Translations under genes and position numbers: made by a program
Origin: Patescibacteria group bacterium
GTDB taxonomy: Bacteria > Patescibacteriota > Gracilibacteria > UBA4473
Assembly: GCA_965660445.1 (NCBI GenBank)
Contig: CBFIAK010000001.1
Coordinates: forward strand, 96,001-160,000
DNA: 64,000 nt
Reading direction: 5' to 3'
The notes under the pieces: model-generated
Told to the model about the DNA's origin: nothing
What the model saw: only the letters and a program-made list of their open reading frames with translations
Database searches by the model: none
Shown here: positions 6,296-32,277 of the stretch, piece by piece
How the letters are laid out: the number at the start of each line of letters is the position of its first letter
How positions within the stretch are numbered: position 1 is the first letter of the stretch

Positions 6296-8139
6296 TATGC
6301 ATTACTTGGTTCAAAATACGTTAAGAATTCTTCACGAGTCATGTTTTCTTTTGTGAGCAGGTCTTCTGCAATTTTTTGAAGCATATCTTTTCGTTGTGTC
6401 AAAATATCAATACATCGTGCCTCTGCATGAAGAACGAGTTTTTGAACTTCTTCATCAATAAGACGCGCTGTTGATTCCGAAAACTCTTTTTCATGGACAT
6501 CTACCCCCGCAAACCCTTTTGTTTTTTCAGCAAAAACAACGGGACCTATTTTTTCTGGATCCCCCATTCCATAGGTCATCACCATTGATCGAGCAATATT
6601 TGAAATTCGCTCTAAATCGTTTGAAGCTCCTGTTGTAGCCTGTCCAAAAAAGAGTCGTTCTGCAATACGTCCTCCATGCAGAGACACCATTTCGTCTTTC
6701 ATTTTTGATTCACTCGAAAGATATCGGTCTTCTCGAGGTAAAAACCATGTTAATCCCAAAGCCCCCCCACGAGAAATAATAGAAATTTTATGCACTGGTT
6801 CGCAATTTTCAGTAAAATGTCCCGCAATAGCATGTCCAACTTCATGATAAGCGATTATTTTTCGTTCTTCTTCATTGATACGGCGAGATCGTCTTTCTGG
6901 TCCCATAGAGACTTTTTCAACGGCTTCAAGTAATCGCGATTGAGAAAGAGATGATTCTCGTTGTTTTACTGTTGCAATAGCCGCTTCATTTAAAACATTT
7001 TCGAGATCAGCACCAGAAAACCCAACTGTTTTTGATGCAATTTCTTGAAAATCTATATCAGAAGCAAGTGTTTTATTTTTTGCATGAAGTGATAATATTT
7101 TTTCACGAGCATTCATGTCTGGCATATCAATATGAATACGTCGATCAAATCGCCCCGGACGAAGCAATGCTTTATCCAGAACATCTGGACGGTTCGTAGC
7201 GGCAATAACAATCACCGATGTATCGTTATCGAACCCATCCATTTCTGTAAGAATTTGGTTAAGGGTTTGTTCTCGTTCATCATGACCTCCTCCCATACCT
7301 TGTCCTCTTTGTTTTCCAATAGCATCAATTTCATCAATAAAAATTATTGACGGAGCATTTTTTTGAGCGGTTTTAAACAAATCACGCACACGACTCGCCC
7401 CCACACCAACAAACATTTCTACAAACTCTGAACCTGAAACTGAATAAAAAGGAACATTTGCTTCTCCCGCAATTGCACGAGCGACAAGCGTTTTTCCAGT
7501 TCCAGGAGCCCCTACCAAAAGAACACCTCTTGGGATTTTTGCTCCCATTTTATGATATTTTTTAGGGTTCTTAAGAAAATCAACAACTTCTTCTACTTCT
7601 TCTTTCGCTTCTTCTGCACCTGCAACATCAGCGAATTTTGTTTTCGCTTTTGTATGATCATACATTTTGGCTCGAGATTTCCCAAACCCAAACGGACCGT
7701 TATCGCCCCCCATATTACCCGCTTTTCGAGTCAGGAAAATAAGCAAGAAAACAATAAGAATAATAGGTCCCACCGCCAAAAGCACTTGCCCCCAAATAGC
7801 TCTTTTTGTGGTATCTATAACATTTATTTCAGCGGGATTCGTTTGGTCAGTGAGTCCTAAATCTGCGATAGTTGCTGATGGTTCTTTGACGGTTAAAAAT
7901 ATTTCTCCTGTTTCCGTTTCTGCTTTTAGTTCATTATTTTCAATAGTAATAGACGCAAACTCTTGGTTTTCATATGATCGCATAAATTCAGTAAGAGATA
8001 CTTCTTTTGTTTCTTGTGTTGTAAACAAAGTATCCGTATCACCAAAAACAAAAGTGAGCCCTGTGAGAATAAGAGCAATAAGGAAAACATAAAAAAAAGG
8101 ATTTGGTTTTTGTGGGAAATTTTTCGGTGTTGGTTTCAT
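6295..8139 (-). CDS. ftsH: ATP-dependent zinc metalloprotease FtsH (start placed at MKPTPK)
   Basis: Two TM helices, [28 protein letters not shown]. Confidence 0.97.
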
Positions 8140-21468: not shown

Positions 21469-22179
21469 TTAATAAGAAGAAAAACGCAGTTCAAGTTGTT
21501 CTTTAATGACTTTCCAATTGTGACATCTTGAAGTCAAAAATCGGTAATATTCAGGACTATGATTTTGATATTTCATATGGCAAAGTTCATGCGTAATCAC
21601 ATAATCAATGCATTCTTTAGAAGCCTTTATAAGTTCTGGATTGAGTAAAACCTTTTTTTTCGTCAAAAAACTTCCCCAACGTTTTGGCATTTTTCGGATA
21701 GAAAGCTCCGGAGTAAAATCGTAATTGAATTTCTTTAACATCTGTCGATATCGCTCTTCAAATATTGATTGAGCTCTTTCTTCGTACCATTTGTCGAGCA
21801 ATTCCTTATTTCTGTGAGAATCTGTTACCGATCCGATCGTATGGAGAATTATTTTTCCACTTTCAAAATAAACCTGATCTTGGTCTGATTTTTCCACAAC
21901 AAGCTTGTACTGTCGCCCAAGGTATAACAAAGATTCTCCAGAGATATACTCCTTATTTTTATTGCTCCTCTGCAGTCTTTTGATGTCTTTTACTTGAGCT
22001 GTAATCCAACCACATTTTCGTGTCAAAAAGTTGATAATCTTATCTTCGGGGTGACCATTCGGAACATATAAAACAATCTTCAAATTCGGATACACAGTAA
22101 GGCGAAGCGTTTTCCGCTCCTCTCTGACCAAATAGTATTGGTATTTATAGTCTCCGTAATGAAAGGGTGTTGGTTCCAT
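21469..22179 (-). CDS. M48/YgjP-like (DUF45) metallopeptidase associated with type I R-M
   Basis: RWGS, DYVITHELCH..NHSPEY; overlaps hsdR stop. Confidence 0.9.
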   Translation of the reverse strand: MEPTPFHYGDYKYQYYLVREERKTLRLTVYPNLKIVLYVPNGHPEDKIINFLTRKCGWITAQVKDIKRLQRSNKNKEYISGESLLYLGRQYKLVVEKSDQDQVYFESGKIILHTIGSVTDSHRNKELLDKWYEERAQSIFEERYRQMLKKFNYDFTPELSIRKMPKRWGSFLTKKKVLLNPELIKASKECIDYVITHELCHMKYQNHSPEYYRFLTSRCHNWKVIKEQLELRFSSY

Positions 22180-25100
22180 TAGAATAATTCGTGGTTTTCG
22201 AGTGCCAAACTAATGACTAAATCAAGGATGGAAGCAAGTTCTTCATGAGTAAGATCTAAATCCATATTGAGTTTCACTTCATCGTACAGATAGTCATCAA
22301 TCTTATTCTTAATAATTCTTTGGGTGTCAGATTGTTTGTGCCAGTCAATAATGGTTTCTTTTTTGAGTATCCCAAATACGTCCAAAATAATCTTACATAC
22401 TTGTTCATCATTGAGTCCCAATGCTACAAATCGATCCTTTAAATTTCTGTAAAAAATATCTGCTCCTTTGGCATTTTGTAAGATTTCAGGCAATTGATCA
22501 TCTTCTTTATTAACCATTTTCTCCCGAGCCTCTCTTAGTCTTTTAAGAGCTTCTATGTCTGCCATTTTACCCTCCCGCATTTTTTTCAAAATATCTTGAA
22601 TCTTATCTGAAAATCTTCGGTAAAATTCAGGATCGGTATCTGCCTTTTCGGTAATGGTTCGTTGCATTTGTGAGGCAATCGCTTCGGCTTTTGATTTTGG
22701 CGTCCCTAATGTTTCAAGAGCTTGCTCAAAAGCCTCTGAATCATTTATATTTATCGGTTCAGTGAGCAATTCTACTTTATCGGCATCAATGTATTCATCT
22801 AAAATCTTAACCAGTTGTTTCTTGTATTCAGAAAGGTCTTTTCTATCTGCAAATTTAATCTGACTTGATTTTCGGAGTTCTGCATATCTCTTGAGTTCGA
22901 GCTTATAGGTATCAATGTGTAGGAACCGTGCCGAAAAATCAGGCAATGACATACATTCATCTAGATTTCGAATGAAAGCATTAAAAAGGCTATAAAAATC
23001 ATTTCGTCGTTGTTCTCCTGCTTCCTCAGTGCCCAAAAACTCTAGATAGCTCTCTGTGTCTTTTTTGTTTTTTACGGTCTTAAAGTGCCCTTCAAGATTT
23101 GAATACGCTTGTTCTAGTTCGGATATCTTTTGAGTGGTATCGATCAATGTTCCTTTTACGTCTTCTTCATCAAAGTTCCCAAAGAGTTCCATTGCTGACT
23201 TAATATTCTGGGCATTCTCTGAATAGTCGATGATAAACCCTGCCGTTTTCGGCTTGTCTTTGTTTTCATAGAGTCGATTTACTCGAGCGATAGCCTGCAA
23301 AAGGTTGTGATCTTTGAGGTCTTTGGTGAGGTAAAGTACCGTATTTCGTGGAGCATCAAATCCAGTCAGAAGTTTGTCTACTACAATCAATATTTCAATT
23401 CCATCTGGATCATTTTTAAAGCTTTCTGTGACAGCTTTTTCATAACTCTCTAAATCTCTGTAGTCAGATGATTTTTTCTTTAGGAAATCAGATACTTCTC
23501 GTTTGTGGCTATCGGTTTCATCATCGTGTGCTTGAGCTTCTGATATTACCACTGCAGTGCGGAGCCTTTGTCCTTCTTCGAATACTTTTTGAAACAGTAA
23601 GGCAGAATATTTTGAAGGAGCTACCAATTGAGCCTTGAGTCCTGTTCCTTGGAAATAACTTCGAAAGTGATCTTCGATATCATATGCAATCTCCGTAATC
23701 CGATGAGGATTGTTTTTGATTACTTTTTGATTAATAAATCGTTGTAAATCTTTTACCGAATCAGGATCAAGTCCTGCGGTGATTCGTTCTACATGACGAT
23801 CTACTTTCTCTTTATTCTGATTGAGTTCGGTATATCGCCCTTCATAGATTAAGGGTAGAACTATCCCGTCTTCGAGTGCATCATCAATCGTATATTTATC
23901 AATAAATCCACCAAAACGATTGTGCGATTTATCATTTTTGAGAAGTGGCGTTCCCGTAAACCCAATAAAACACGCATTTGGAATCATCCGTCGCATTTCT
24001 TCACTTGCCATTCCGTATTGTGTTCGATGGGCTTCATCAATAAGTACAAAGATATTTTCGTCTTTATCTGCAAAACTTCCTCGTTTTTTGCTGAGACTAT
24101 CAAATTTATGTACGAGAGATGTGATAACCGCAGGATTTTTTTCTTTCAGTAATTTTAAAAGTTGATTTCCATTCTTTGTTTTAATGACGTCCTTTTTGAG
24201 ATTACAGTTCTTGAACGTATTTGAAATCTGTCGATCCAAATCGACTCGATCGGTGATAATCAAAATTCGAGGATTGATGAGTTCTGGATTTTCGATCAAT
24301 GCTTTTACAAAAAGCACCATCGTTAAAGATTTCCCCGATCCCTGCGTATGCCAGACGATTCCTCCTTGTCTCTTTTCTCCCTCTACGCCCTTTTCTTTCA
24401 GAGAAACTCGTTTAAGCATTTTACTAATCGCAAAGTACTGCTGGTATCGAGCAATTTTCTTTGTCCCACCGTCAAAGAGCATAAAGTATCGTGTCAAATT
24501 GAGAAGCCGATCTGGTCGTAAAATACAGTACAGCGTACGATCTTGCTTGGTCGTCAGCCGATCTGTAAGCTGACGATGATTGAGGGTTACCCCATTCATA
24601 TCCGTGCACATGATTCTGTAAATTTCTGAGTCAATATGTGTATGGATATGTTTTTGGATTTCTGTATCAAGGACATCCAAATCAGTTTCTTTCTCTTTCC
24701 ACGAAGCATAAAACTTCGTCGGGGTTCCCGTCGTTCCGTATAAACATTCCTCCACATTGGTTCCGATCAAAAGCTGAGGATACACAAAGAATTTTGGTGA
24801 ATACTCCGGTTTTTGATTTCGGTTCATTTGATTGAGTGCGTCTTTTACTTCGGTGCCTGATTTTTTGTTTTCAATTACCACGAAAGGAATCCCGTTTACA
24901 TAACACACGATATCGGGACGAATATTTTCATTTTTCCCATTCACAGGTACTTCAACCGCTACATGAAAGCTATTGTTTTTTGGATTCTGGAAATCAATAA
25001 ATCGAAAGTTTTGTGAAGAAGGTTTTCCATCAATCATAACGGGGAAAGTTTTTCCGCCTTCGGTCATGATAAGGTGATAGACTTCTTTGGCGGTGTCTTG

Positions 25101-25364
25101 AAGCCCATGAACTTGGATGTTTTCAAGTTCTTCAATCGCATCCCACACATTCTTATCACTAAAAGGATATATCTCCCCTTTGTATTCAAAGTGATTGATT
25201 TTCTTCAGGCTTTCAAAGGCAATATTCTTGAGGATAAATTTTCCATTCTCTTCTCGGCGTTGCTTTTTGAGTTCTTCGCACGAGAGATACGTGTACCCCA
25301 TATTGATCAGGAGTTCTACGGCAGGGAGTTGGGATTGTCGGGCTTCGTCAAAATTAGCTTGCAT
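22179..25364 (-). CDS. hsdR: Type I restriction endonuclease subunit R
   Basis: RPDIVCYVNGIPFVVIENK nuclease, WHTQGSGKS, IDEAHR, GFTGTP, QAIARVNR. Confidence 0.96.
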   Translation of the reverse strand: MQANFDEARQSQLPAVELLINMGYTYLSCEELKKQRREENGKFILKNIAFESLKKINHFEYKGEIYPFSDKNVWDAIEELENIQVHGLQDTAKEVYHLIMTEGGKTFPVMIDGKPSSQNFRFIDFQNPKNNSFHVAVEVPVNGKNENIRPDIVCYVNGIPFVVIENKKSGTEVKDALNQMNRNQKPEYSPKFFVYPQLLIGTNVEECLYGTTGTPTKFYASWKEKETDLDVLDTEIQKHIHTHIDSEIYRIMCTDMNGVTLNHRQLTDRLTTKQDRTLYCILRPDRLLNLTRYFMLFDGGTKKIARYQQYFAISKMLKRVSLKEKGVEGEKRQGGIVWHTQGSGKSLTMVLFVKALIENPELINPRILIITDRVDLDRQISNTFKNCNLKKDVIKTKNGNQLLKLLKEKNPAVITSLVHKFDSLSKKRGSFADKDENIFVLIDEAHRTQYGMASEEMRRMIPNACFIGFTGTPLLKNDKSHNRFGGFIDKYTIDDALEDGIVLPLIYEGRYTELNQNKEKVDRHVERITAGLDPDSVKDLQRFINQKVIKNNPHRITEIAYDIEDHFRSYFQGTGLKAQLVAPSKYSALLFQKVFEEGQRLRTAVVISEAQAHDDETDSHKREVSDFLKKKSSDYRDLESYEKAVTESFKNDPDGIEILIVVDKLLTGFDAPRNTVLYLTKDLKDHNLLQAIARVNRLYENKDKPKTAGFIIDYSENAQNIKSAMELFGNFDEEDVKGTLIDTTQKISELEQAYSNLEGHFKTVKNKKDTESYLEFLGTEEAGEQRRNDFYSLFNAFIRNLDECMSLPDFSARFLHIDTYKLELKRYAELRKSSQIKFADRKDLSEYKKQLVKILDEYIDADKVELLTEPININDSEAFEQALETLGTPKSKAEAIASQMQRTITEKADTDPEFYRRFSDKIQDILKKMREGKMADIEALKRLREAREKMVNKEDDQLPEILQNAKGADIFYRNLKDRFVALGLNDEQVCKIILDVFGILKKETIIDWHKQSDTQRIIKNKIDDYLYDEVKLNMDLDLTHEELASILDLVISLALENHELF

Positions 25365-25366
25365 AG

Positions 25367-25972
25367 TCAGATAGTGGTTATTTGTTCTAAAATATTAGCT
25401 TTCGGGTTTATCATATATTTCAAATATTCAATAATGATTTCCCGAATTTTTTCATGGTTGTAGGTCAGTATCTGTTCATAGTGAAAAATTCTATTTCGAA
25501 ATTTTCTTATACGATCAAGATCTGTAGATATTTGTCCGAATTTAATCTTTTTTGTATTCGGAAAAACATGTTTTAATGTTGAATTTTTCCAAATATCTTG
25601 AGCATAGGCTTTATCACAAAGAGATGTCCAAAATCCAAAATTTAATTCCGATATCATTGTATCAACATTTAAATCTTTTTTATCTGCTAATATACGCTCA
25701 TATGCTTGCTCTAATTTTCCTTTATGTCTTGCATGTAAAACATTATTTGCAAAATAAGAAGAAGGGGCATACCAATCTTCCCAATTTTTATTGAGATGTT
25801 TTGCTATTTTATTTCGTAAGATTATTTCTGTAAAATGCATTAAATGATAGAATTTCTGTGATATTCGTATATTTTTTGTATAAACTTCAAATGGAGATAC
25901 TCCAGATTCTTCAGCTTTTCTAATGTAGAATTCGGCTCTTTTCTCTGATATTAATTTCTGTAAATCTTTCAT
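25367..25972 (-). CDS. Abi_2/AbiF-like HEPN-domain protein (putative RNase toxin)
   Basis: EIILRN, ELNFGFWTSL, and Rx4H HEPN motif RNRIFH. Confidence 0.8.
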   Translation of the reverse strand: MKDLQKLISEKRAEFYIRKAEESGVSPFEVYTKNIRISQKFYHLMHFTEIILRNKIAKHLNKNWEDWYAPSSYFANNVLHARHKGKLEQAYERILADKKDLNVDTMISELNFGFWTSLCDKAYAQDIWKNSTLKHVFPNTKKIKFGQISTDLDRIRKFRNRIFHYEQILTYNHEKIREIIIEYLKYMINPKANILEQITTI

Positions 25973-26000
25973 TAAATTAAGTGATAAATTCTATAAAACT

Positions 26001-26029
26001 TTGACAACTTAGAATATTTTTCATATAAT
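26001..26029 (+). promoter_or_regulatory. Perfect consensus sigma70 promoter, divergent from the Abi gene
   Basis: TTGACA-17 nt-TATAAT. Confidence 0.85.
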
Positions 26030-26035
26030 AAGCTT

Positions 26036-26123
26036 AGCATAATCCAGGATTCTTCCTTGCAAATAGCCTCTTGGGGGCTTAAAATAGCCCAAGTTCTCAT
26101 CGCAATAGATACCTGGATTTTTT
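26036..26123 (+). ncRNA. Putative structured small RNA (candidate antitoxin of the HEPN protein)
   Basis: Nested stems AATCCAGG/CCTGGATT, TTGC/GCAA, CTTGGG/CCCAAG; ends in T-run; no ORF. Confidence 0.65.
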
Positions 26124-26129
26124 GTATGT

Positions 26130-27314
26130 TCATTGTTTTGGCATGGTTAGATTTTCGGGAGTTCGAATCTGTCCTGTGATCAGGTTATTGAGCAGATATT
26201 TTTTTTGATCTTCGAGTATTTGTTTTTTCTTTTCGAGGGCGGTGATTTCTTCATCAACTGTCGTGAGGATTTGAGCAATGGCAGTTTGTTCTTCTATATC
26301 AGGCAATTTAATAGTCAAGTATTGATATTCAGATAGATATTTCCGCTTGTGTTCACCTACTATAAAATTTACAAGTTGCATTCTCTCGTAGATAAATTTG
26401 ATATTAAATTTTGAATTGTCCTTTGATCGTAAAAGTTTCATTGCTGATGATTTCACCTTGAACTCAAAATCAACAAACTTATTCGCTGTAGTGAAATCAT
26501 CAAAAATAATTACAGGCAAATTTGTACAGATGCCATCTGTTTCATTTGTGTAGCCAAGAATAAAGCTTTTTCCAGCAGTTAGCACAGGCGTTTTATTTAA
26601 GTCATCATATTGATCACTATCTACTATGTATTTCTGAGGTTGTTCATAACCTAAAACCTCTCCAAGTTCATAGTTTCTCCACTCATCATTAAATCCCTTC
26701 AATCGCCTTTTCCCCGTCAACAACTCCTGCATCAATCCTTTTTTGATGTTTTTCTTGAGTTCGATTTTTCGCGTGAGTTTTTCGATGGATTTGTCCCATG
26801 TTTCGAGGATTGTGACGATGCGGTGTTGTTCGGGGATAGGTGGGACTTTTATTGTTGTGTCTTGAATTTTTGTTGGAGAAGTGTGTCGTACTTTTGTTCC
26901 AGATGCAGTTGCAGATATCTCACTTCTGAATCTCTTCGTCTTGAACGCAAAAAACAAAAACTCTTTGATGCAATTCTTTTTTATTTCAACTAATCCCAGA
27001 CGTTGATTATGTAGAAAGCGATTACTATCAGGTATTATGGCAGCACTCCCCAAAAGTCCTTCCTTTTGCTCGGTCATGGCAATTATTACATCACCCTTAT
27101 TTAAAAGGTATTGCTTCGGGAATTCTCCTGTATAAAATCGATCTTTTTCTCCCCTAAACTTAAAGCCGCCTTCTTCGTAAAAATTCCCTGGAGTTAATAA
27201 TATAAAATCACCTCTTTCTGAAAAAAACTGGCTAGAAAAGGCAAAACCATGCTTAATTTCAATAAGCTCTCCTAATTTCACCTGTTTCCAATCTGTCGGA
27301 ATGGGGTTATTCAT
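26130..27314 (-). CDS. hsdS: Type I R-M specificity subunit (two TRDs)
   Basis: IPTDWKQVKLGE, PPIPEQHRIV, KKGLMQELLTGK, PDIEEQTAIA. Confidence 0.95.
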   Translation of the reverse strand: MNNPIPTDWKQVKLGELIEIKHGFAFSSQFFSERGDFILLTPGNFYEEGGFKFRGEKDRFYTGEFPKQYLLNKGDVIIAMTEQKEGLLGSAAIIPDSNRFLHNQRLGLVEIKKNCIKEFLFFAFKTKRFRSEISATASGTKVRHTSPTKIQDTTIKVPPIPEQHRIVTILETWDKSIEKLTRKIELKKNIKKGLMQELLTGKRRLKGFNDEWRNYELGEVLGYEQPQKYIVDSDQYDDLNKTPVLTAGKSFILGYTNETDGICTNLPVIIFDDFTTANKFVDFEFKVKSSAMKLLRSKDNSKFNIKFIYERMQLVNFIVGEHKRKYLSEYQYLTIKLPDIEEQTAIAQILTTVDEEITALEKKKQILEDQKKYLLNNLITGQIRTPENLTMPKQ

Positions 27315-28326
27315 GGTTATTCCAAATGTTAGCAGTACGATAATCATACAGGTGTAGAATCTTCTGTTTCGCAGGCGTTTTATCTCTATTAAACCCAGCT
27401 ATTCGTGAACGAATTTTTTCAACATCTGGGGAATCTTCACGAGAAACTCCCAAGAATATATTCTTTACTGTTCCTTGTAATAGCCCATCCAAAATATGAT
27501 TATCATTATCTTTTAAGTAAGTCCCCAAAATCACTAAATCTCGATTCACTTCTTTTAAACACCTATAACAATGGTTTAGGTAACCATTATGGATTATTTT
27601 TGTCATTTTTTGAGAACTATCACCCTCTGAGATAAAAACGGGGTAAATCCCTGATGATAAACTATTTCGAACCTGTGTAATAAGCTCAATTCCAGAATTT
27701 TTATATGTTTTTTTAATGATTTGATCTCCTGCATCAAAAAGATGAAGAGCTCCATGAAGGTAGTGTACCTTGAAACTTCGTTTGTTTTTGTAAACAACAT
27801 ATCCTTCATGCTCACTATCTTCATCATTTCCAAATCCGTCCGTAAATTCTGTTTCTTCCGAAGAGGAGTGAATTACAGACCAATACAAGAGAAGGTCATA
27901 ATTCAAGGTAAAAATTTTATCAAAATTCCTCAAAAAAGTGACACATGAATCCTTCTTTTTGGCATCGATATCCGTAGAATTTGTTGGATGATTATTTGTA
28001 ATAATCGTTACCAAATATTCTTTAAGATTATCTGCATCATCCAACAACTGTTTTCTTAGGTTGGGATCTGCCTCATAAACATCAACTACTTTTTCTGTCT
28101 CATTTAATATTCTCATCACACTTTCAAAATCTGCAGTCTCAAGTTTTTGAAAAACCTTATAAACGTAGCTATCTTTTTCGATAATTTTATCCGCAACTGC
28201 AGACTCAAGAAGAGTTGTAAAAGAGAATCTCTCAGGTTCGTATGCCATACTAAAACCATTCCCCAGCAATACATGGGGATTGTTTGCTTGCTCAATAACT
28301 TGATCAAATGTGAGTAATGGGGTCAT
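27307..28326 (-). CDS. DUF4917 family (SIR2-like fold) protein
   Basis: HVLLGNGFS, FTLNYDLLLYW, DGFG, YLHGALHLF. Confidence 0.8.
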   Translation of the reverse strand: MTPLLTFDQVIEQANNPHVLLGNGFSMAYEPERFSFTTLLESAVADKIIEKDSYVYKVFQKLETADFESVMRILNETEKVVDVYEADPNLRKQLLDDADNLKEYLVTIITNNHPTNSTDIDAKKKDSCVTFLRNFDKIFTLNYDLLLYWSVIHSSSEETEFTDGFGNDEDSEHEGYVVYKNKRSFKVHYLHGALHLFDAGDQIIKKTYKNSGIELITQVRNSLSSGIYPVFISEGDSSQKMTKIIHNGYLNHCYRCLKEVNRDLVILGTYLKDNDNHILDGLLQGTVKNIFLGVSREDSPDVEKIRSRIAGFNRDKTPAKQKILHLYDYRTANIWNNHE

Positions 28327-28331
28327 GAGTT

Positions 28332-30155
28332 TTAAAATTTCAGAGCTGCTAAAAGTTTTTTGATCCTTTCCTTTGATTCATCATCAAGTTCAATTTTTTC
28401 TGTGCTTACTTTTTGTAAAAATAACCGAGCCAACAGGACTTTGTCTTTCTTTTGTTTCGAAACATACGCGGAGCTTTTTGTCGTGTATTTTGCCTTCTCA
28501 TTCCCCAAAACAAATTTCTTGAAATCCTGAATACTGAGAATGTCCTCAATTGCATCGCCCTCTTCTCCTGTAACTGCTTTTATTAAATCAGGACTTACAT
28601 GAAATGATTCCAGCCTTTTTTCTCCCTGATCTTTTCCGCTGTCATTGTCGAAAAGATATAAAACTTCAGCTCCCCATCCTTCGAGAATTGTTCCTACAAA
28701 TCCCATATTTGGAGCACCGCCTCCGTTAATAAAGTTGATATTTGTTTTGCTTGATGAAAGTTTTTTAAAGGCTTGCAAATAAAATACATCTGCAGGGCCT
28801 TCAACTACCACGTTCTTTTTTTGATCGATATTTAGAATAGAGTCATTAACCCCCAAACCAATAGCTGTTAGCACCGGAGTGAGAGTTTCTTTACTTGCTT
28901 CATTGTGAGCGTGAATTTTTCCCAAAATTTTACTCCCTTCAACATTGTCTTTTTTCTCAACAAGCCGAACAGCTTCCAGGTTCTCCGGTTCGATCAAATA
29001 GGGAGAATGAGTAGAGAAAAGTACTGGATAATTAGATCCATGTTCTCTAAGGACTTTTAATAAATCTTTTTGTGCTTTTGCGTGCAGATACAATCCAGGT
29101 TCATCAATGAGTATTATATTTGGTTTCCCATCTCTTATACGTGCTACGATCTTAACGTAAAAACTCAAATACCATTGCTGCCCCTTGCTCCGTTGAGATG
29201 GATAGTATTGTTTATCGTTCTCAACAATCCAAAAATTAACTTTTTCTCCATCTCTCTTGACCTCTAGTTTTATGGCATCTTGGGTCCAGAATTGTTTGAA
29301 CTTGTCGGTAAAATCAATATTAACAGCCCGCTCGTGATTTCCTCTCTCTTGAATATTGGTAGATTTGATTTTCTTGATATCAACCTGGCTCACTTCCTGT
29401 AAATCTTTTGCCCACTCATCATTTTCAAGAGCAGAAACATCTATTGATTGTGGGAACTCATCTTCAAAAGATGAGAAAAGTATGAAATAAGGAAGCTTTG
29501 ATGAGACAAATTTTTCTATAAAGTCCGTACAAAGCTTTTCCCTTGCAAAATATTGATCTATTGCGTCAATGACTGCCTCAGCCTTTTCATTGAGACCGTT
29601 TTTTTCTTCTGCACTGAAACCATGTGCCTGAATGTTTGTCTGGAAGCTTTTAATTTCTGTTTTTAAGGCTTTGAATGTTTTCGTTTTATCTAGACTTGGG
29701 ATCGCCAAATTCACAGTGGATCCATCTACGATTTTTTTAAGTTGCCCTAATCCATTTAGGACAATTTTTTTCTGTGGAAAATATATTAACTCTAGTCCTA
29801 AGGCCTTTCGAGACTCTAAATCCAAAATGTATTTCTTTTCTCCATAAGATTTTCTTAGGGAAATTTCTGTCTTTTTTGAAACACTTGATTCAAATCCTAT
29901 TTCACCAAATATCTCATTAATTTCCTTACTTGTTAGACTAAATGTAACAGATATTTCAGGATCTTCTTCTGAGTTTATTGATTTTGCTTCTTCTCGTATT
30001 TCATTGTTTTCGTGAAAATCTTCCAACGCTTCAAGTATAGAAGTTTTCCCTGACTCATTTTTCCCCGCCAATATGGTAAGACCTTTACTAAAATAACAGT
30101 CATTTGAGTCAACAATAGATTTATAGTTTTTGATTCTGAATTTAATAACTTCCAT
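28332..30155 (-). CDS. OLD-like ABC ATPase + TOPRIM nuclease
   Basis: GKNESGKTS Walker A, RSKG signature, LIDEPGLYLH, STHSPY; TOPRIM VVEGPAD and FDND. Confidence 0.87.
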   Translation of the reverse strand: MEVIKFRIKNYKSIVDSNDCYFSKGLTILAGKNESGKTSILEALEDFHENNEIREEAKSINSEEDPEISVTFSLTSKEINEIFGEIGFESSVSKKTEISLRKSYGEKKYILDLESRKALGLELIYFPQKKIVLNGLGQLKKIVDGSTVNLAIPSLDKTKTFKALKTEIKSFQTNIQAHGFSAEEKNGLNEKAEAVIDAIDQYFAREKLCTDFIEKFVSSKLPYFILFSSFEDEFPQSIDVSALENDEWAKDLQEVSQVDIKKIKSTNIQERGNHERAVNIDFTDKFKQFWTQDAIKLEVKRDGEKVNFWIVENDKQYYPSQRSKGQQWYLSFYVKIVARIRDGKPNIILIDEPGLYLHAKAQKDLLKVLREHGSNYPVLFSTHSPYLIEPENLEAVRLVEKKDNVEGSKILGKIHAHNEASKETLTPVLTAIGLGVNDSILNIDQKKNVVVEGPADVFYLQAFKKLSSSKTNINFINGGGAPNMGFVGTILEGWGAEVLYLFDNDSGKDQGEKRLESFHVSPDLIKAVTGEEGDAIEDILSIQDFKKFVLGNEKAKYTTKSSAYVSKQKKDKVLLARLFLQKVSTEKIELDDESKERIKKLLAALKF

Positions 30156-30158
30156 AGT

Positions 30159-31670
30159 TTATTGAATATTAAGTTCTTTAAGATATTGAGCCATTTGCCC
30201 CTCTAGCTTCTCAATCTCTGGCTCAAGCTCCGCCAACTCCTTTAAATTCGCTGAAATATCGATCGCTTCCTCTTCCTCAAAGGTATCTACATATCTCGTA
30301 ATATTGAGATTGTAGTCATTTTCTTTGATCTCATTAGCTTGAACAATTCTAGAAAATTTATCGATTTCTTTTCGCTTGGCATAGGTTTCGTAAATCTTGT
30401 CCGAGTTCTCTTCCGAAAGTGTATTTTGTGCTTTTCCCGAAACAAATTCTTTGCTTGCCTCAATAAAGAGGATGTCTTTTTTGTCTTCATTTGCACCACC
30501 TACTTCACGTGAGCGATCAAGAATCAAAATCGCCACAGGAATACCTGTTGTCTGGAAAAGTCCTGCAGGCAGACCAATGACCGCATCAATGAGATTTTCC
30601 TCAAGTAGTTGCTGACGAATTTTCCTTTCAGCCCCTCCACGGAAAAGAACTCCATGGGGTACAATTACTGCCACACGCCCCGTTTTGGGTTTTACGGTTT
30701 CGATCATGTGCGTGATGAAGGCAAAGTCTCCCTTGTCTTTTGGTGGTACTCCGCGATGAAAACGATTGTATGGGTCTGAATCCGCATTTTCTGCCCCCCA
30801 CTTCTTTAAGCTGAAGGGCGGGTTTGCCACACAAACATCAAATTGCATCAATTGGTCATTTTCAACCAATTGTGGATTGTTCAGTGTGTCTCCCCATTCA
30901 ATTCGAGCAGAATCTTGGTTGTGCAAAAACATATTCATCCGAGCCAGCTGGAAAGTACTCCCTGTGGATTCTTGTCCATATAGGGCGTAATTTTTTGAAC
31001 CGTCGTTTTTTTCTACTTCTTCCCCCGTCATAAGAAGAAGTCCCCCAGACCCCATCGCAGGATCACATATCCTTGCCCCATCTTTTGGTTGTGCGAGTCG
31101 AGCAAGCAATTGGGCAACTGATTTCACGGTGAAAAATTCTCCCGCTTTTTTCCCTGCGTCCGCACCAAACTTTTCAATGAGGTACATGTACGAATTCCCG
31201 ATCACATCTTCATTAATTTTCGTAAGATCGATCTTGTGAAAATCATGAATGAGGTGCCGAAGCATTTTGTTCCGAGATTCTAATTTCCCGAGTCGACTTT
31301 CTGAATTGAAATCAAGCGAGGTCAAAAGTCCTTCCAGTTTTTCTTTATTGCTATCTTCAATCTTATGAAAGGCTTTATTGAGCTCTTGTCCGATACTGTC
31401 GGTTTCTATTTTTTGATAAATCTCATCAAAGGATGTCCCTTCTGGAAGATAAAAACGATCCATTTTCATTTTTTCTCGAATACGAGTTTCATCCGCCCCA
31501 TATCTTTCTTTATATTTTTCATGCTGAACCTTTGAAAGATCGCTCAAATACTTATAGAAAAGCATTGCGAGTACGTAGTCTTTGTAAACTCCCCCGTCCA
31601 ATGTCGTCCGAGACGAATCAGCCGCATTCCAGAGGATTTTGTTGAGATGTTCTTGGGTGATAGTGGTCAT
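30159..31670 (-). CDS. hsdM: Type I R-M methyltransferase subunit M
   Basis: AGEFFT, DPAMGSGGLL, ANPPFS, PHGVLFRG, YNLNITRY. Confidence 0.96.
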   Translation of the reverse strand: MTTITQEHLNKILWNAADSSRTTLDGGVYKDYVLAMLFYKYLSDLSKVQHEKYKERYGADETRIREKMKMDRFYLPEGTSFDEIYQKIETDSIGQELNKAFHKIEDSNKEKLEGLLTSLDFNSESRLGKLESRNKMLRHLIHDFHKIDLTKINEDVIGNSYMYLIEKFGADAGKKAGEFFTVKSVAQLLARLAQPKDGARICDPAMGSGGLLLMTGEEVEKNDGSKNYALYGQESTGSTFQLARMNMFLHNQDSARIEWGDTLNNPQLVENDQLMQFDVCVANPPFSLKKWGAENADSDPYNRFHRGVPPKDKGDFAFITHMIETVKPKTGRVAVIVPHGVLFRGGAERKIRQQLLEENLIDAVIGLPAGLFQTTGIPVAILILDRSREVGGANEDKKDILFIEASKEFVSGKAQNTLSEENSDKIYETYAKRKEIDKFSRIVQANEIKENDYNLNITRYVDTFEEEEAIDISANLKELAELEPEIEKLEGQMAQYLKELNIQ

Positions 31671-31673
31671 GGT

Positions 31674-32243
31674 TTAGGCGGTTATGAGTTTATTAATAGA
31701 GGCTTCAGCGATTTCTTGGTGAAGCTGAGATCGACGCTCATAGAGTTCTGAGCGTCGAAGATGGTTTTTGTATATATCTATAATATACTCCTGAGTTTTT
31801 ATATCAGGAATTGGGATTTCAATTTCCGTAAGAGAACTTTTTGGTAAAGAACGAATAGTTGCCCCACGACTAAAATTCTCCAACAGTGCTTGTCCTTTTT
31901 GTGAATTCAGGAAAATAGATAAATATTCAGGGATAATAGATTTTTGATCTTGAACCCGAATTATATAAACCGATGAAGCGGCAATAATATTCTTTTGATT
32001 TCCCTCATAAAGACTCGAACGAAACGTTCCCCGATTCGTAAGAAGTATATCCATTTTCTGAACGAATCCTTGTGATCGCGTTTTATCAAGAGATATCCGA
32101 ACAAAATCAAGATCAAGAGTTCCATCTGTATTTATATTGCGAGCCTGTAGGACTCGATACTCCCCACGAGGATCATCTAATATCGCAGACCGAAATGTAT
32201 GCCCGAGAATTATTTCAGCAATATCTTTTAACTTATTTTGCAT
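31674..32243 (-). CDS. Single-TRD HsdS-like protein
   Basis: [30 protein letters not shown]; first gene of the R-M operon. Confidence 0.8.
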
Positions 32244-32249
32244 ACCAAG

Positions 32250-32277
32250 AGTATACAGATGTTTTTCTATGTGTCAA
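32250..32277 (-). promoter_or_regulatory. Promoter of the R-M operon (leaderless geometry)
   Basis: Minus strand TTGACA-16 nt-TATACT-6 nt-ATG. Confidence 0.7.

Follow-up and report, generated by a model that had tools for sequence, protein, structure and literature searches.

Do two defence-like genes that lie side by side inside a type I restriction-modification (RM) operon form one two-component system, or do they merely share a site? The question is raised by a stretch of 64,000 nucleotides (hereafter the window) from a Patescibacteria group bacterium of the Gracilibacteria (assembly GCA_965660445.1, contig CBFIAK010000001.1, positions 96,001 to 160,000). Between the hsdM and hsdS genes of the window, a gene for an OLD-like ABC ATPase with a TOPRIM domain (hereafter the ATPase) is followed by a gene for a SIR2-like protein of the DUF4917 family. 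A preliminary description, made from the letters alone, had proposed that the pair is a sensor/effector system that matches no described one. Our analysis favours a different reading, to which we give a probability of about 0.72: the two genes are independent single-gene defence cassettes standing side by side in an RM cargo hotspot, not a two-part system, and the operon holds three embedded single-gene cargo modules (OLD, SIR2-like and Abi_2-like). A defence role is plausible for both genes. Each cargo presumably works without the other, and the enzymatic activities of both proteins are predicted by analogy with their relatives.

Co-occurrence of the two cargo genes

The relatives of DUF4917 comprised 57 loci from contigs of one genome per species and 75 metagenome loci, and those of the ATPase comprised 80 genome loci. 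No ATPase relative was found in the 57 genome loci around DUF4917 relatives, either by phmmer with the window ATPase or with a profile built from 34 homologues. The same profile found none in the 75 metagenome loci, except for a marginal match of 19.5 bits to a 118-residue open reading frame (ORF) on the opposite strand of locus L214. In the other direction, neither phmmer nor the DUF4917 profile detected a DUF4917 gene in the 80 ATPase loci. Many loci had flanking sequence enough to show a partner: 1.9 kb or more lay upstream of DUF4917 in 44 of the 56 genome loci and in 35 of the 74 metagenome loci, and 1.1 kb or more downstream of the ATPase in 67 of the 80. Furthermore, a Pfam scan of immediate neighbours identified no recurrent partner for either gene: the 138 unannotated neighbours of DUF4917 contained no AAA_15 or OLD ATPase, and the 114 neighbours of the ATPase contained no SIR2 or DUF4917 protein. 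The neighbours of DUF4917 were RhuM, Bro-N, Abi_2, DUF4145, SLFN_AlbA_2, PemK, Fic, AbiEii, TIR+SLOG, DUF4062 and others; those of the ATPase included GmrSD, Mrr, HNH and BrxL. The co-occurrence of DUF4917 with OLD ATPases, which the preliminary description had put forward as a check, therefore shows two genes that occur independently, an outcome which that description had itself named as refuting the pair.

The same RM backbone, moreover, carries either gene alone. Five loci whose HsdM is 74-77% identical to that of the window hold only DUF4917 (L003, L004, L006, L011 and L151; HsdR, where present, is 54-68% identical), and four loci with an HsdM 70-73% identical hold the ATPase without DUF4917 (L066, L069, L070 and L071). 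In these single-cargo loci hsdM and the cargo overlap by up to 14 nt or are separated by up to 7 nt, and an overlap of the cargo with hsdS is usual; the junctions thus resemble those of the window. Since either gene is found alone at the hsdM-hsdS junction of the same backbone, the arrangement in the window is the union of two common single-cargo architectures. In the wider set, with RM genes detected by means of the window's own proteins and therefore possibly under-counted, DUF4917 is flanked by hsd genes in 28 of 57 loci (seven times as hsdM-DUF4917-hsdS and nine times as hsdS-DUF4917-hsdR) and the ATPase in 15 of 80 (11 times as hsdM-ATPase-hsdS). At an identity of at least 53%, the arrangement hsdM-ATPase-hsdS was seen in 10 of 16 ATPase loci.

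The junction also receives other genes. Among 32 HsdM-related loci, hsdS directly follows hsdM in eight, one to five ORFs intervene in 12, and 12 are cut off or unclear. The intervening cargo includes ThsB-like TIR proteins, an 8xMP membrane protein, SMODS+SAVED and other CBASS-like genes, RhuM, Bro-N, Fic and SLFN_AlbA_2, as well as a Shedu SduA_C fragment beside an ISL3 transposase. DUF4917 itself is stacked with RhuM or Bro-N in L022 and L041, and the ATPase with RhuM or with ORFs of no assigned family in L065, L069 and L070. Given this variety and these stacked loci, stacks of unrelated cargo are normal at the hsdM-hsdS junction. The RM backbone serves as a small defence island.

The system that the preliminary description had in mind would have to be a recent and lineage-specific one, with an OLD-like ATPase sensing infection or anti-restriction proteins and switching on a SIR2-like NAD+ (nicotinamide adenine dinucleotide) hydrolase, or NADase. 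We consider this unlikely. It would agree with the 5 bp spacing of two genes on the same strand of one operon and with the intact motifs of both; other defence systems combine ABC ATPases with a range of effectors (10.1101/2024.01.29.577857), and the nearest solved SIR2 protein is regulated by an ATPase. It does not agree with a pair that was met in 0/57, 0/75 and 0/80 related loci, with the finding of either gene by itself at this junction in the same backbone, with an ATPase that already bears its own TOPRIM effector, or with other unrelated cargo stacked just as tightly at the junction. A complex prediction from the ATPase and DUF4917 alignments, for which controls were not run, scored 0.00 against a mark of 0.32 and is uninformative on binding.

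Several points nevertheless weigh against two independent cassettes. A spacing of just 5 bp, with probable co-translation of the ATPase and DUF4917 genes, fits a functional pair too, and among solved structures the DUF4917 model lies closest to a SIR2 protein that needs an ATPase partner, HerA. No hsd gene was detected in roughly half of the DUF4917 loci or in most of the ATPase loci; accordingly, the link to RM is frequent but not obligate. The family has one published characterisation, and this describes a protein deacetylase and not an NADase (PMC10421069). The sampling covers one genome per species and 75 metagenome contigs, many of them short, and locus L007, without ORFs under translation table 11, was left unscored in the DUF4917 counts.

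The RM operon as a site for cargo

The operon occupies one minus-strand gene run (21469-32243) of the window, and the gene names are backed by Pfam and PADLOC. The features, in the direction of the genes, are as follows.

32250..32277, minus strand: promoter-like site TTGACA-16-TATACT, 11/12, immediately ahead of the operon's first gene (a consensus match only)
31674..32243, minus strand: half-size hsdS-like gene with one target-recognition domain, 189 residues (Methylase_S 1.1e-13)
30159..31670, minus strand: hsdM, type I methyltransferase subunit, 503 residues (N6_Mtase 2.1e-101, HsdM_N 5.3e-23, PADLOC MTase_I 4.2e-128)
28332..30155, minus strand: cargo 1, putative OLD-family ABC ATPase + TOPRIM nuclease, Class-1-like, 607 residues, P0001 (AAA_15, AAA_21, OLD-like_TOPRIM)
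27307..28326, minus strand: cargo 2, DUF4917 protein with a predicted SIR2 fold, PADLOC PDC-S21, 339 residues, P0002 (DUF4917 2.1e-64; PDC-S21 1.9e-107)
26130..27314 (longest ORF from 27347), minus strand: hsdS, specificity subunit with two target-recognition domains (Methylase_S 4.1e-29 in two stretches, PADLOC Specificity_I 1.1e-63)
25367..25972, minus strand: cargo 3, short Abi_2-like gene between hsdS and hsdR, 201 residues (PADLOC PD-T4-5 6.6e-9; Pfam Abi_2 8e-4, under the cut-off)
22179..25364, minus strand: hsdR, restriction subunit, 1061 residues (HSDR_N, SWI2_SNF2, T1R_D3-like, T1RH-like_C; PADLOC REase_I 3.8e-159)
21469..22179, minus strand: YgjP-like metallopeptidase gene, the usual last gene of the RM backbone (YgjP-like 4.4e-52)

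The junctions can be read from the sequence. The TAA stop codon of hsdM is followed after 3 nt by the ATG of the ATPase, and the TAA of the ATPase after 5 nt by the ATG of DUF4917, whose own stop overlaps hsdS. The longest hsdS ORF, with its start at 27347, gives a 41-nt overlap; the more likely start is the in-frame ATG at 27314 (ATGAATAA, 8-nt overlap, N-terminus MNNPIPTDW). The preliminary description was thus accurate about the layout, namely two genes between hsdM and hsdS with gaps of 3 and 5 bp and an overlap of the second with hsdS. The cargo is probably transcribed together with the RM genes as a single transcript; promoter-like sites are not enriched in the region, with 29 found against a shuffle mean of 36.9.

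The Abi_2-like ORF is separated from hsdS by a gap of 157 nt, covers only about two thirds of the profile and may be truncated. A homologue occupies the same position in L016, and a full Abi_2 gene is found in L041. Homologues of the half-size hsdS stand in the same position in L003, L004, L006, L066, L070, L071 and other loci, and a YgjP-like gene follows hsdR in related loci. In this RM backbone the half-size HsdS upstream of hsdM is kept across many phyla, in the same orientation as the full hsdS; it may provide a second specificity or act as a partner in recombination. As a separate observation, cargo of the TIR, 8xMP, SMODS/SAVED/patatin and Shedu types stands at hsdM-hsdS or hsdS-hsdR junctions of L228, L230, L231, L235, L236 and L241.

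The source genome (991 kb in five contigs) has a single copy of each of the two cargo genes. DUF4917 was found in 0/60 relatives of this genome, and a search of the same 60 relatives for the ATPase returned weak ABC matches and nothing better; horizontal acquisition of the locus or of its cargo is therefore probable. The unscored L007 is itself a Gracilibacteria locus, and one match in genome G046, of the same class as the window, contains 20 in-frame TGA codons. Some members of this class evidently translate TGA as a sense codon; the window's own genes are open under table 11.

Under the reading of two independent cassettes, the operon of half-size hsdS, hsdM, hsdS, hsdR and YgjP would offer its junctions as a landing site for defence cargo, and the RM enzyme would give first-line restriction. 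The OLD protein would be expected to act like its published Class 1 relatives, cutting or nicking DNA as a stand-alone protein. DUF4917 would consume NAD+ once triggered on infection, as SIR2-HerA, DSR2 and ThsA do through their SIR2 domains. It is possible that each gene separately serves as a backup triggered by anti-restriction.

The attachment of the ATPase to modification genes is not limited to type I operons. ATPase relatives lie between type III mod and res genes in L072, L073, L102, L120 and L125, and directly after orphan-looking type II methyltransferases (C5, EcoRI-like and D12) in L082, L084, L086, L088, L089 and L134. The OLD clade seems to be tied to DNA modification genes generally, and it might act as the nuclease partner of those genes. 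In a related explanation both cargo proteins would guard the type I enzyme in the way that PrrC guards EcoprrI: silent under the Hsd complex and freed by phage anti-restriction, they would be independent of one another and dependent on RM. The repeated embedding of each gene among hsd genes, at junctions that overlap or leave 1-13 bp, would suit such guards, as would the ATPase relatives between type III mod and res and beside type II methyltransferases; 10.1101/2024.01.29.577857 presents both PrrC as a precedent and the case for ABC-ATPase cargo. We nevertheless regard this explanation as improbable: the position of DUF4917 varies (hsdM-hsdS, hsdS-hsdR and after type III res), the gene has no nearby RM gene in about half of its loci and stands alone on Leptospira plasmids, and the Class 1 OLDs described in the literature function with no RM partner (PMC12392090).

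The two cargo proteins

The ATPase is matched by the Pfam families AAA_15 (2.7e-23) and AAA_21 (8.7e-16), and OLD-like_TOPRIM (PF20469) passes narrowly, with 24.2 bits against a cut-off of 23.2. A script located Walker A (GKNESGKT at 31), the signature (SKGQQ at 323), Walker B (LIDEPG at 349) and the H-loop (STHSP at 381), together with the TOPRIM motifs VVVEGP (E452) and DNDSGK (D503, D505). These motifs, including E452, D503 and D505, are invariant across 34 aligned homologues. The AlphaFold model (predicted local distance difference test, pLDDT, 83.9) folds residues 447-527 into a beta-alpha repeat. When the 34-homologue profile was compared with the PDB, the best solved relative was the OLD protein TsOLD (6P74, 8.4e-13), followed by PtuA, AriA and GajA. 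Foldseek also placed 6P74 on top for the model (5.3e-11 over 670 columns), with a template modelling (TM) score of 0.32-0.37; this low score reflects a differing domain arrangement or model error. VIA aligned the ATPase head to the SMC, Rad50 and PtuA heads with Z of 16-18.5, and its top 50 for the full model held only ABC/SMC-type heads; the TOPRIM part was barely probed there. Sequence likeness is low, with 51 bits for 6P74 and some 80 bits for the Old and AriA models of PADLOC, no strong match was found among the PADLOC and NCBIfam models, and no NCBIfam model was above its cut-off. On its sequence and model, the protein is most like a Class-1-like OLD family nuclease, an activity that is predicted.

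The second protein is better covered by existing families. Besides the Pfam match to DUF4917 (2.1e-64), the PADLOC profile of PDC-S21 (PDLC04960) aligns residues 1-336 with its positions 1-335 of 336 (1.9e-107, 357.7 bits), and a second PADLOC profile, PDLC04961, matches at 5.2e-75; NCBIfam gave no family above cut-off. The preliminary description had recognised no described system here; the PADLOC check, which it had proposed, identifies DUF4917 over its full length as the catalogued single-gene candidate PDC-S21. The motifs GNGFS at 22, TLNYD at 140 and LHG at 190 were located by script, and G22, N23, G24, F25, N142, D144, H191 and G192 do not vary among 34 homologues. An alignment with PsSIR2 (8w9l) pairs up the NYD and HG motifs, although the match is weak (E 0.43), and we take the invariant Asn/Asp and His, by analogy, to be catalytic. 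The claim that the ATPase, TOPRIM and SIR2-like motifs are intact is thereby borne out for both proteins, and Pfam, Foldseek and VIA agree with the domain calls of an OLD-like ABC ATPase with TOPRIM and a SIR2-like DUF4917 protein; the Pfam matches of the two proteins greatly exceed what chance would give.

The DUF4917 model (pLDDT 88.9, predicted TM score, pTM, 0.88) is nearest in Foldseek to the SIR2 chains of SIR2-HerA (5.3e-9, probability 1.0). VIA likewise aligned it to the SIR2 protein of SIR2-HerA (8wld) with Z 17.1 and a root-mean-square deviation of 4.4 over 277 residues, followed by KomC, SPARSA, DSR2 and ThsA (Z 11-13; 12-13 for KomC, DSR2 and ThsA) and by classical sirtuins (Z 10.6-11). 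From this model we are confident that the protein has a SIR2 fold closest to antiphage SIR2 proteins. A four-cysteine zinc module is a criterion for deacetylase sirtuins. DUF4917 has three cysteines, of which the alignment shows one to be near-invariant and one partly conserved, and such a module is therefore not seen. The family is embedded in RM operons of archaea, candidate-phyla bacteria and proteobacteria, a context that suggests a part in phage defence. Our literature search on DUF4917 returned nothing on phage defence, the name PDC-S21 was absent from the searchable literature, and a search on SIR2, type I RM, NADase and embedding returned nothing specific to the family. The possibility that DUF4917 is an NAD-dependent protein deacetylase with a non-defence role like that of Campylobacter jejuni SliP, its operon position being incidental, is very remote. 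In its favour, C. jejuni homologues share 45-49% identity with the protein of the window, and PMC10421069 reports sirtuin-type deacetylation and secretion for Cjj81176_0779. Against it, the same source places SliP itself together with a type I R subunit in one operon; members of the family lie inside RM operons in many phyla, archaea and candidate-phyla bacteria among them; the model is best matched by antiphage SIR2 proteins, with classical sirtuins scoring lower; and the three cysteines form no visible zinc module.

Two loci place DUF4917 next to other NAD-related genes. In L014 (4404-6989), genes for an NMNAT/NUDIX fusion and for NAMPT lie on the same strand directly upstream of DUF4917 (6989-8038), and the NAMPT stop abuts the DUF4917 start; these NAD-salvage genes are a possible NAD-replenishing partner for an NAD-consuming DUF4917 protein. 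In L027 (2334-3362), a DUF4062 gene adjoins the DUF4917 gene on the opposite strand. DUF4062 is reported to be a TIR-like NADase in the abstract of a 2026 preprint, and L027 would then hold two NAD-linked candidates side by side.

Comparison with known systems

SIR2-HerA (Nezha), DSR2, ThsA, SPARSA and KomC share with DUF4917 the SIR2 Rossmann fold and the GxGxS, N/D and HG motifs. The DUF4917 protein differs from them as a single-domain protein of 339 residues, with no HerA, SLOG, pAgo or long sensor domain, and its identity to antiphage SIR2 NADases is 12-17%. Four systems were considered for membership and rejected. For SIR2-HerA, the adjacent ATPase is of the ABC/OLD type and not HerA, and there is no HerA among the 138 DUF4917 neighbours. 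For Thoeris ThsA, the DUF4917 protein is single-domain without SLOG, and the operon has no TIR gene. For Gabija, no helicase gene lies beside the window ATPase, and the GajA models match weakly, at 1.8e-14 or worse. For PARIS, the TOPRIM domain is fused to the ATPase, there is no AriB-like (DUF4435 TOPRIM) gene, and the AriA model (2.4e-23) covers the ATPase part only.

The window ATPase combines an ABC ATPase and a TOPRIM domain in one polypeptide, as do the OLD family nucleases. In a review (PMC10568477), OLD partners are listed by class as a UvrD-like helicase (Class 2), a retron reverse transcriptase (Class 3) and a separate AriB (Class 4), whereas Class 1 OLDs are described as single genes not near other defence genes, with ATPase- and TOPRIM-dependent killing and nuclease activity. 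Class 1 members include P2 Old, the Thermus scotoductus OLD 6P74, which is the best match of the window ATPase, and the Vibrio cholerae Vc OLD; the last defends alone, with DNA nicking (PMC12392090). The window ATPase likewise stands as a single gene, its neighbours being hsdM and DUF4917, and no helicase, retron reverse transcriptase or AriB partner occurs among the 114 immediate neighbours in the 80 ATPase loci. The clade to which it belongs is, however, habitually embedded in RM operons, unlike the Class 1 genes as that review (PMC10568477) presents them. The habitual company of this Class-1-like clade with type I, II and III modification genes may help to explain the triggers of stand-alone OLDs.

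SliP (Cjj81176_0779) belongs to the same Pfam family as the window DUF4917. PMC10421069 describes it as a secreted sirtuin-type deacetylase that acts on histones in host neutrophils, with ThsA as its best threading match. By family assignment and gene context, SliP is a member of the RM-embedded DUF4917 family. Its reported role is host-directed, whereas the window DUF4917 comes from a genome of about 1 Mb whose close relatives lack the gene. The Campylobacter-type loci L023, L031, L032 and L051, from uncultured Campylobacter records, have the order hsdS-DUF4917-hsdR-YgjP. The published function of SliP fits uneasily with the RM context of the family, and a defence test is deserved. A bolder, rather doubtful idea is that of a layered immune unit in which the OLD clade and DUF4917 would both be guards tied to restriction enzymes: once RM is disabled, one would cut DNA and the other burn NAD+, and the DUF4917 family, SliP included, would then consist primarily of antiphage NADases and not of host-directed sirtuins.

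PrrC with EcoprrI offers a precedent for the arrangement, as an accessory defence gene between hsd genes that is probably co-transcribed with them, like the cargo of the window. PrrC, an anticodon nuclease, is under the control of the RM enzyme, whose state it senses (10.1101/2024.01.29.577857), whereas the window cargo comprises a putative OLD nuclease and a SIR2-like protein, whose coupling to the Hsd proteins would be hypothetical. In the same preprint, defence cargo embedded in type I RM operons is described and used to nominate 145 PDC candidates. The locus is therefore an ordinary case of a described phenomenon, and the value of its analysis lies mostly in removing the false lead of a new OLD+SIR2 system. 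DUF4917 is a good and cheap candidate for experimental validation, because its confident SIR2 model lies near antiphage SIR2 proteins and the family is RM-embedded in archaea, candidate-phyla bacteria and proteobacteria. PDC-S21, to which it corresponds over the full profile, is an unvalidated single-gene candidate of the 'guilt-by-embedding' catalogue of Payne et al. (10.1101/2024.01.29.577857), and embedding in a type I RM operon, the feature from which such candidates were derived there, is equally a feature of the DUF4917 gene in the window.

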